Origin: Girardia tigrina
Taxonomy: Eukaryota
Direction of reading: 5' to 3'
NCBI GenBank assembly: GCA_001938485.1
Contig: MQRK01245782.1
Location: forward strand, 5,381-66,715
Length of the DNA: 61,335 bases
Of the stretch, positions 21,847 through 22,400 are shown piece after piece. Positions within the stretch are counted from its first letter, which is position 1; every line of letters starts with the position of its first letter. Both the position numbers and the translations under genes were made by a program. The notes under the pieces were generated by a model. The model ran no database searches. It was not told the DNA's origin and saw nothing but the letters and a program-made list of their open reading frames with translations.

Positions 21847-22030
21847 ATGGAATCGGTACCAAACAACACGATTTACGTGTACCATCTCGATAAAAAGATC
21901 AAAAAAAGAAGAGCTAAAAAAAGCTCTATCTGCCGTGTTCTCGCAATTCGGACGAATTCTCGAAATTATGGTCAGTAAATTGGTCAGATTGAAATTGAAA
22001 GGTCAAGCGTTTGTTGTGTTTAAAAATATC
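21847..22030 (+). pseudogene. U1A/U2B'' (SNF family) RRM1 fragment
   Basis: [16 protein letters not shown][+1 A][20 protein letters not shown]...KGQAFVVFK; frameshift in the A-run at 21901-21907. Confidence 0.88.
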
Positions 22031-22303
22031 AAATGCCCTGAGGCTTATTGTACTATATCATTTGAAGATAGAGCAAATAAAAAGCTCTTAAATGAAAATG
22101 ATTATGAATTTTATATGAGAAAATCGTTAAATCGTGTTAAGCCAAAGTTGGTCAATTCATATCAATGTCAAACTCCGAACTGTGACTTCTGTGAATTATA
22201 TAACAAAAATGTGAAGACCTTAAAATGTCCAAAATGTAAAGAGGAAAATTGTCTTTCTTGTAAAGCTGCTCACCCAAAAGAGAAAAGTAAAGACTATCAA
22301 GCT
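22031..22303 (+). pseudogene. RBR E3 ligase fragment (RING1 end plus IBR, HOIL-1/RBCK1-like)
   Basis: KCP..C...KKLLNENDY...[11 protein letters not shown]...[17 protein letters not shown]...KDYQ; resembles HOIL-1 SYHCKTPDC...CPVC...NCLLCKAIH...KEYQ. Confidence 0.78.
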
Positions 22304-22400
22304 AGAAATGCCATAATATTTGTGCCAGCTAAAACCGCGATGCAATCCGGAACCTTCTAGACGAGGAATTGGAAAATCGAATTTGATCAGCCAGAGAAAG
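22304..22400 (+). pseudogene. NDUFS4 (complex I 18-kDa subunit) fragment
   Basis: [23 protein letters not shown] versus the NDUFS4 motif IFVPARNxMQSG...WKMEFD. Confidence 0.8.

Follow-up and report, generated by a model that had tools for sequence, protein, structure and literature searches.

A long terminal repeat (LTR) with pieces of three host genes joined on the same strand and in the same frame was found in Girardia tigrina, as a solo copy from what is, by domain content, a multicopy BEL/Pao retrotransposon family. The window, which is the whole stretch of DNA analyzed here, is 61,335 nucleotides long (positions 5,381 to 66,715 of contig MQRK01245782.1, assembly GCA_001938485.1). From the comparison of copies, we estimate a probability of about 0.74 that Gag-Pol of this family would start at a host ATG captured in the LTR, that the leader would run via the primer-binding site (PBS) and ubiquitin, and that deubiquitinases would remove the leader. 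We infer the transcription start, translation and cleavage of this model. A broader statement, which we also think probable with less assurance, is that the family relies on host start codons for its translation, repeatedly stealing 5′ ends of housekeeping mRNAs and discarding the leader via ubiquitin. The window family is unusual, and the window copy itself, a broken solo LTR that gained a frameshift and a stop after insertion, is ordinary debris.

A solo LTR from a BEL/Pao family

The LTR is 1380 bp long (21161–22540, + strand), extends from TGTT to CA, and lies between the two copies of a 5-bp target-site duplication (21156–21160 and 22541–22545). The sequence-only reading had described a triple chimera and missed this setting. 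A candidate empty-site joint from 21150 to 22546 was seen in run X1, with a side of 30 nt that is too short to use.

When the same genome (1.43 Gb, AT-rich) was searched at the DNA level, 1694 candidates came up and 40 of them were scored. The copies have a sharp common right end corresponding to 22540, and in the window's subfamily the left end is at 21161. Of the 28 copies that were inspected, 16 have TGTT at the left end and CA at the right (TA in one), lie between 5-bp duplications and are 1362–2131 bp long, with L012 and L020 excluded from this count, and the bounded LTRs carry several differing left parts. The chimera junctions are present in 24–36 genomic copies, and the HOIL|NDUFS4 junction is also spanned by a contig from a different run (X6), so an assembly chimera was rejected. 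Copy number and common ends had been proposed earlier as checks, and both came out in favor of a repeated unit.

A complete element was found on contig C254813 (G000). Its two LTRs are 97.3% alike over 1874 nt, both carry the chimera and the same 3′ part, and a 5-bp duplication flanks them. The interior contains DUF1759, DUF1758, RVT_1, Peptidase_A17, integrase (rve), a PBS and a polypurine tract. Several features that define BEL/Pao are present, namely the domain order Gag-PR-RT-RH-IN with Pao-type Pfam domains, direct LTRs, TG...CA ends and a target duplication of 5–6 bp. BEL/Pao elements have gag-pol in a single frame. On another contig, C73664, one frame that begins in the LTR extends through RT, interrupted by one stop, and then shifts in RNase H; all element copies read are broken somewhere.

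BEL-type Gag carries Cys-His knuckles. At the place of the knuckle, Pfam recognized a CCCH-type finger (E 1e-5), not zf-CCHC, and CCCH-type zinc fingers were observed in the Gag region at L031:4912-5778. The PBS begins 4 nt beyond the LTR, and 18 nt of it are complementary to a 5′-truncated tRNA-like sequence (L129) with a CAT loop and CCA; we take the primer to be the initiator tRNA. At the PBS-complementary loci, neither ARAGORN nor Rfam called a whole tRNA. Incidentally, three repeats (L124, L127 and L128) hold just the 3′ third of this tRNA-like sequence. In L047 and L051, internal deletions fuse ubiquitin or gag straight to LTR-end sequence, and a Gypsy-like RT comes next in frame in L051.

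Several other features of the window were noted. Flanked by TTAA sites and with the inverted ends CCC...GGG, a small element lies 11 nt right of the LTR (22552–22785); it is presumably a piggyBac-like MITE and has very high summed depth in run X1. An inverted repeat at 18345–19378 has 430-nt arms, 96% complementary, around a 174-nt spacer. Zinc-knuckle and aspartyl-protease frames of another retrotransposon (30530–31671) are found between inverted arms at 16014–16501 and 32189–32674. A helix-turn-helix fragment of a Tc1/mariner-type transposase is on the minus strand at 57932–58327, and AT-rich direct repeats, 77–96% alike, lie 26 kb apart at 13962–14537 and 39970–40546.

Host gene pieces captured in the LTR

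All parts of the LTR read on the + strand. The left part (21161–21797) is variable and putatively U3-like. It includes the coding-like stretch (21379–21537) that had been noticed at about 21380–21537 as merely lying upstream, and its portion from 21433 to 21797 is also found in SMC1-type LTRs. ORFs in U3 are mostly without a convincing Pfam match, apart from one Methyltransf_22-like piece (E 4e-4).

The captured 5′ end of a host U1A/U2B''-type gene follows (21798–22033). It begins 49 nt ahead of the ATG at 21847, contains leader and codons 1 to about 60, and is 88% identical to the host locus (L069). The 3′ part of a HOIL-1-like host exon A (22031–22084) overlaps the U1A piece by 3 nt, which make one Lys codon, and is fused to HOIL-1-like exon B with the IBR region (22085–22307), the intron being gone. 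A central piece of host NDUFS4 (22300–22399) overlaps the HOIL piece by an 8-nt in-frame microhomology. In each case, the two host genes read the overlap in the same frame. The ORF of the earlier reading was rightly ended at 22360, as a stop lies at 22358–22360, and the NDUFS4 piece extends beyond it up to 22399. Then comes a short fourth piece (22400–22444), of which the first ~15 nt resemble the stretch ahead of the SAICAR-synthetase piece in a sister LTR (L035); its source was not found, with zero PDB matches. The GC-rich block reported downstream turned out to be the conserved 3′ end of the LTR (22445–22540), which is open in the leader frame and is followed by the PBS in complete elements.

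When the open frame 21848–22357 was compared with PDB sequences by phmmer, U1A was matched at residues 16–63 (E 2e-11) and HOIL-1/RBCK1 at residues 68–153 (E 4e-10), and Pfam returned RRM_1 and IBR. NDUS4 was matched in sister copies (E 1e-4 and 1e-6), and the window NDUFS4 DNA is identical at 86 of 98 positions to the host NDUFS4 gene, which was found by family search. The host U1A gene is a single exon of 223 codons, and the window matches it at 213 of 242 nt (88%). Thus, the joining of U1A, HOIL-1-like and NDUFS4 fragments in one strand and frame was borne out, and all three host genes are in the genome. In the window copy, one base shifts the frame near 21901, 6 nt are inserted near 21980, and the above-mentioned stop is present. 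The frameshift, recognized earlier as an extra A, is a real change in an A-run against the host U1A gene.

The HOIL-1-like parent was not obtained by homologue search, a representative search gave relatives of 27–49% only, and a guess at the NZF family gave unrelated genes; it was later found by following a contig match. Its exons in the same genome match the window at 49 of 54 (exon A) and 217 of 231 positions (exon B). Exon A stops at a GT donor (L085, L087 and L089), and exon B, which is on a different contig (L092), starts past an AG acceptor. In the LTR the two are fused exactly at 22084/22085, and host mRNA-like contigs have the identical join. Sister LTRs L035 and L057 are without the 41-nt NDUFS4 intron. 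Overall, captured copies are 88–96% like the host genes. For the SMC1 piece of other LTRs, the host gene was not found near the hinge-domain matches fetched, and the piece is matched by host-length mRNA contigs.

Because an intron is missing and microhomology is found at both junctions, capture of RNA by template switching is supported, with the pieces derived from spliced host mRNAs. The sequence-only reading had favored serial mRNA capture by reverse transcriptase and had named both traits as checks; that part stood. Its other route, Helitron or Pack-type capture, fell with the ends, the duplication and the complete BEL/Pao elements. Helitrons have TC...CTRR ends and no target duplication, and were rejected on the TG...CA ends, the 5-bp duplication and the intron loss. 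Pack-MULE and Pack-TIR elements have terminal inverted repeats and capture genomic, intron-bearing sequence, and were rejected since the ends here are unlike beyond TG/CA and introns are absent. Intron loss and junction microhomology are also the marks of LTR-mediated retrocopies, of which those in metazoans show microhomology at 25 of 29 junctions with a median of 6 bp (PMC5131818). On the other hand, the pieces here do not replace an internal ORF between the LTRs; they lie inside both LTRs, and the gag-pol domains remain.

Some relatives of the pieces were also observed. A second HOIL-1-like exon, 83% alike, is a host paralogue (L090, G000:C180393). A metagenome protein (P0001) contains U1A residues 1 to ~118 followed by an unrelated tail, and is nearer the LTR piece than the other matches listed; it may represent a longer capture made in a related organism. 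The best 120 of 190 matches listed are of U1A type only, with at most 41% query coverage and no chimera.

The left border of the U1A piece varies. In L014–L016, L018, L019, L024 and L029, likeness to host U1A begins directly after a host TTTCAG, and in the others 12–16 nt earlier; TTTCAG before the leader could be an initiator or a splice acceptor. Coding-like sequence that directly precedes the LTR end in one subfamily (L040) is found ahead of the U1A start in a second one (L014), within the U3-like part, and L029 and L065 likewise have a common piece. New captures seem to push old leaders upstream.

A leader frame that runs into Gag

In the U1A-type LTRs, the length from the captured ATG to the LTR end is a multiple of three in 13 of 28, with modal lengths of 687 and 690 nt. 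Four of the 28 are stop-free over this length, and the other five frames contain 9–24 stops each. In the SMC1-type LTRs the ATG is 489 nt ahead of the end; out of 16, six keep the frame without any stop, and one of these six begins with a codon other than ATG. Duplicate insertions L009 and L023 were excluded from these and the selection counts. A recombinant class, U1A-HOIL-SMC1, was also found.

Several copies remain open over long distances with different host cargos. L052 is open for 802 codons from a PRMT1-like start, covering PRMT_C, ubiquitin and DUF1759, with a short N gap inside. L066 is open for 474 codons from a PSMC2 start, covering PRS7_OB, ubiquitin and Gag, and after one stop goes on through protease and RT. 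L053 (541 codons, HR1 and ubiquitin) has an N gap, and L068 (335 codons, U1A-HOIL-SMC1) and L039 (198 codons, NDUFS4 type) run past the PBS. VAP/MSP and SAICAR-synthetase pieces are in the leader frame in L035–L037, and a 14-3-3 piece in L047 is out of frame. No copy of the window's U1A-HOIL-NDUFS4 cargo among those examined is open fully to Gag, L039 being frameshifted.

From the PBS to Gag, 6 of 15 distinct loci are in frame with at most two stops, in five lengths (750–1143 nt), and three of them have none; 9 of 15 failed this test. Since several cargos were first found through long ORFs, another set of loci was picked by internal likeness only, to limit bias. In this set the PBS frame is the longest open frame upstream in 9 of 13 (nominal p 0.009, for loci that are related), one counted locus (L057) being trivial, and another frame is longer in 4 of 13. 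A missed locus, L048, has a cargo that is in frame in L055. Two N-rich loci, 11 loci without PBS or enough LTR, L045, L046, L058 and one of L063/L068 were excluded from the set.

These results bear on whether the cargo could be a neutral passenger of the LTR, with frames that are open since young sense coding pieces are open and junction frames that are due to chance. The captured copies are indeed young by their likeness to host genes, most copies are broken, some cargos came from long ORFs with a bias to in-frame cases, and 14 of 17 young retrocopies in Tan et al. are in frame (PMC5131818). However, chance would leave unexplained that the frame stays open via the LTR end, the PBS and 250–380 linker codons in five lengths, that it prevails in the set chosen regardless of cargo, and that the ATG-to-end lengths have the modes of 687/690 and 489 nt. 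We regard this explanation as very unlikely. The sequence-only reading had given the kept frame at both junctions a chance of about 1 in 9 and took it as only weakly suggestive of past translation. It thereby underrated the frame, which goes on through PBS and ubiquitin into Gag and is kept with several other host cargos.

Contigs of host mRNAs, of linker-ubiquitin-gag, one from U3 into U1A and one bridging HOIL|NDUFS4 were found in runs guessed to be RNA; this label is mostly a guess, with DNA possible, and the contigs give neither start nor strand. The frameshift near 21901 is missing from the covering contigs of these runs. It speaks against the leader model that a double-CCAAT block, which lies 213–303 nt ahead of the ATG in many relatives, was not found in the window's subfamily.

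Ubiquitin directly ahead of Gag

Ubiquitin hydrolases need an intact ubiquitin fold plus GG. In the family, ubiquitin (E 5e-26 to 7e-33) adjoins Gag directly and ends with LRLRGG, the arrangement known from pestiviruses, in which an in-frame ubiquitin with this end is directly ahead of the released protein. The Gag-proximal ubiquitin ends with GG in 21 of 24 cases, followed by a conserved Ser-Asp/Asn, and an upstream partial ubiquitin repeat has GG in 0 of 13, possibly by one ancestral change. When other organisms were searched for ubiquitin-Gag fusions, polyubiquitins crowded the results and made them uninformative.

Some subfamilies keep a Met that opens the full ubiquitin, and Mets also exist in the linker. 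A Met at the ubiquitin start could initiate translation. It is thus conceivable that Gag is made from a downstream Met, that the leader frame is kept only against a blocking upstream ORF or nonsense-mediated decay, and that ubiquitin has another role, such as an uncleaved tag in particle assembly or turnover. Constraint over the whole length of ubiquitin (omega ~0.35) would suit such a role, as would the Met that opens ubiquitin in one subfamily. However, L040, L042 and L048 have no Met at the ubiquitin start, GG is maintained next to Gag and lost in all 13 upstream repeats, and the intact fold with GG is what hydrolases need (PMC8310069). We consider start from a downstream Met unlikely and continue to prefer start at the captured ATG with ubiquitin cleavage.

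Constraint along the frame

Selection was assessed by simple counting, with host genes or a single natural copy as the reference, and ‘shared’ changes are those in at least three copies. L045, L046, L058, L097 and one of L063/L068 were excluded from the counts. The dN/dS check proposed earlier found the cargo about neutral. Among cargo singletons, omega is ~1.1 and 27 of 212 changes are stops or frameshifts, and of 53 shared cargo changes just two are of this disruptive kind, each located in an A-run and carried by copies whose left parts differ (p 0.043; copies are related, so p-values overstate independence). The same retention of frame was not significant in SMC1 pieces (11/126 vs 1/38, p 0.19) or linkers (p 0.25 and 0.37). 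For shared changes in ubiquitin, omega is ~0.35 with 0 of 64 disruptive, and in Gag it is 0.29 with 1 of 97 disruptive. As judged from these counts, ubiquitin and Gag show protein-level constraint, and the cargo by itself gives modest evidence for a pattern in which the frame matters and the residues matter little.

Shared cargo changes have an omega of ~0.6, and there may be weak protein-level selection on them. If so, the leader peptides themselves might be functional, for example through interference of half-RRM, IBR or SMC P-loop fragments with host proteins. Such function is extremely improbable in our estimate, as the value is not different from that of singletons (p 0.18), the domains are truncated (RRM profile positions 1–49 of 70, NDUS4 2–31 of 96), and the cargos are swapped freely among unrelated genes. 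The pieces might instead act as RNA, essential-gene sequence shielding the LTR from small-RNA silencing and the frame being secondary. The identified cargos are all from housekeeping genes and occupy the part that every insertion contains, and a conflict over gene capture in maize is the title of a work cited in PMC13317346. However, RNA shielding predicts no frame or strand rule, and as the main explanation it has scarcely any probability; it could act on top of the leader model.

Discussion

We propose the following course for start at a captured ATG. Pieces of spliced host mRNAs are joined at 3–8-nt microhomologies. Reverse transcriptase would jump to mRNAs packaged along with the element RNA, probably while minus-strand strong-stop DNA is made, and strand transfer would also be part of capture. 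A host 5′ end with its ATG would thus come to the front of the element RNA and be copied into both LTRs, with element transcription starting at, or just ahead of, this 5′ end. Sequenced copies have a continuous frame from ATG through LTR end, PBS, linker and ubiquitin into Gag. If the captured ATG precedes every other ATG of the RNA, Gag-Pol could be made only after captures that preserve the frame. Cleavage after LRLRGG would give all variants one Gag N-terminus, and leader content would therefore be free to drift and be swapped. The window copy is a solo LTR that acquired its frameshift and stop after insertion.

If this is true, the LTR is a renewable host-derived translation leader, and ubiquitin is an adapter that makes any in-frame capture tolerable. 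It would explain how multi-gene in-frame chimeras can come about and be amplified even if the chimeric protein has no function, a question that is open for Bs1-like elements and metazoan LTR retrocopies. The family would be a natural record of co-packaged mRNAs and of the sites where reverse transcriptase jumps. Hundreds of solo LTRs would be open-ended, in-frame exon-shuffling cassettes able to fuse to flanking DNA, those without a stop before the 3′ end being ready-made fusion starts. Copies are also prone to mis-annotation as paralogues of U1A, SMC1, NDUFS4, PSMC2 or PRMT1.

Single ingredients have precedents in Ty1, Bs1 and pestivirus ubiquitin, and no report of the combination was found. 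As judged by listings outside subscription journals and Repbase, no paper describes a ubiquitin-Gag fusion or capture of a host ATG in LTRs. A term search of a planarian genome preprint (10.64898/2025.12.11.693146) gave nothing relevant, and the word ubiquitin is missing from the main text of a BEL/Pao survey (PMC3118150).

The family shares with BEL/Pao LTR retrotransposons (PMC3118150) the order DUF1759-DUF1758-RT-Peptidase_A17-integrase, TG...CA ends, 5-bp duplication, PBS and polypurine tract. It differs in the modular LTRs of 1.4–2.1 kb with host mRNA pieces, the frame opening in the LTR, the ubiquitin ahead of Gag and the CCCH-type finger in Gag. Burro, a planarian giant Gypsy element, also has host-like domains in the polyprotein of an LTR element, among them SMC and ubiquitin/SUMO-like motifs, but it is 30 kb long and its extra domains follow an N-terminal Gag and are not in the LTR (PMC6431247).

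LTR retroposition (PMC5131818) and maize Bs1 (PMC13317346) likewise involve partial, intronless sense mRNA pieces, short microhomologies and multi-gene chimeras that still transpose, and three-gene capture is known from Bs1 (PMC13317346). In those cases the pieces replace internal ORF sequence between the LTRs (PMC5131818, PMC13317346), whereas in this family the LTR itself contains them, ahead of gag-pol, the coding domains are kept, and the pieces appear to supply the start codon. Ty1 resembles the family in a frame that opens ahead of the PBS (53-nt 5′ UTR, PBS at 95–104 inside GAG) and in an initiator-tRNA primer, but has its own fixed start without captured leader or ubiquitin (PMC5454406).

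Cytopathic pestiviruses have captured host ubiquitin in the polyprotein frame, often with other host pieces ahead of it, and host hydrolases cut this ubiquitin to generate a defined authentic N-terminus (PMC8310069, PMC13517609). The release of Gag by ubiquitin is our working analogy with them. Pestiviruses are RNA viruses in which such recombinants arise sporadically, at an internal site ahead of NS3 (PMC8310069, PMC13517609), whereas here the site is ahead of Gag, the cleavage is a prediction, and the carrier is a heritable retrotransposon family.
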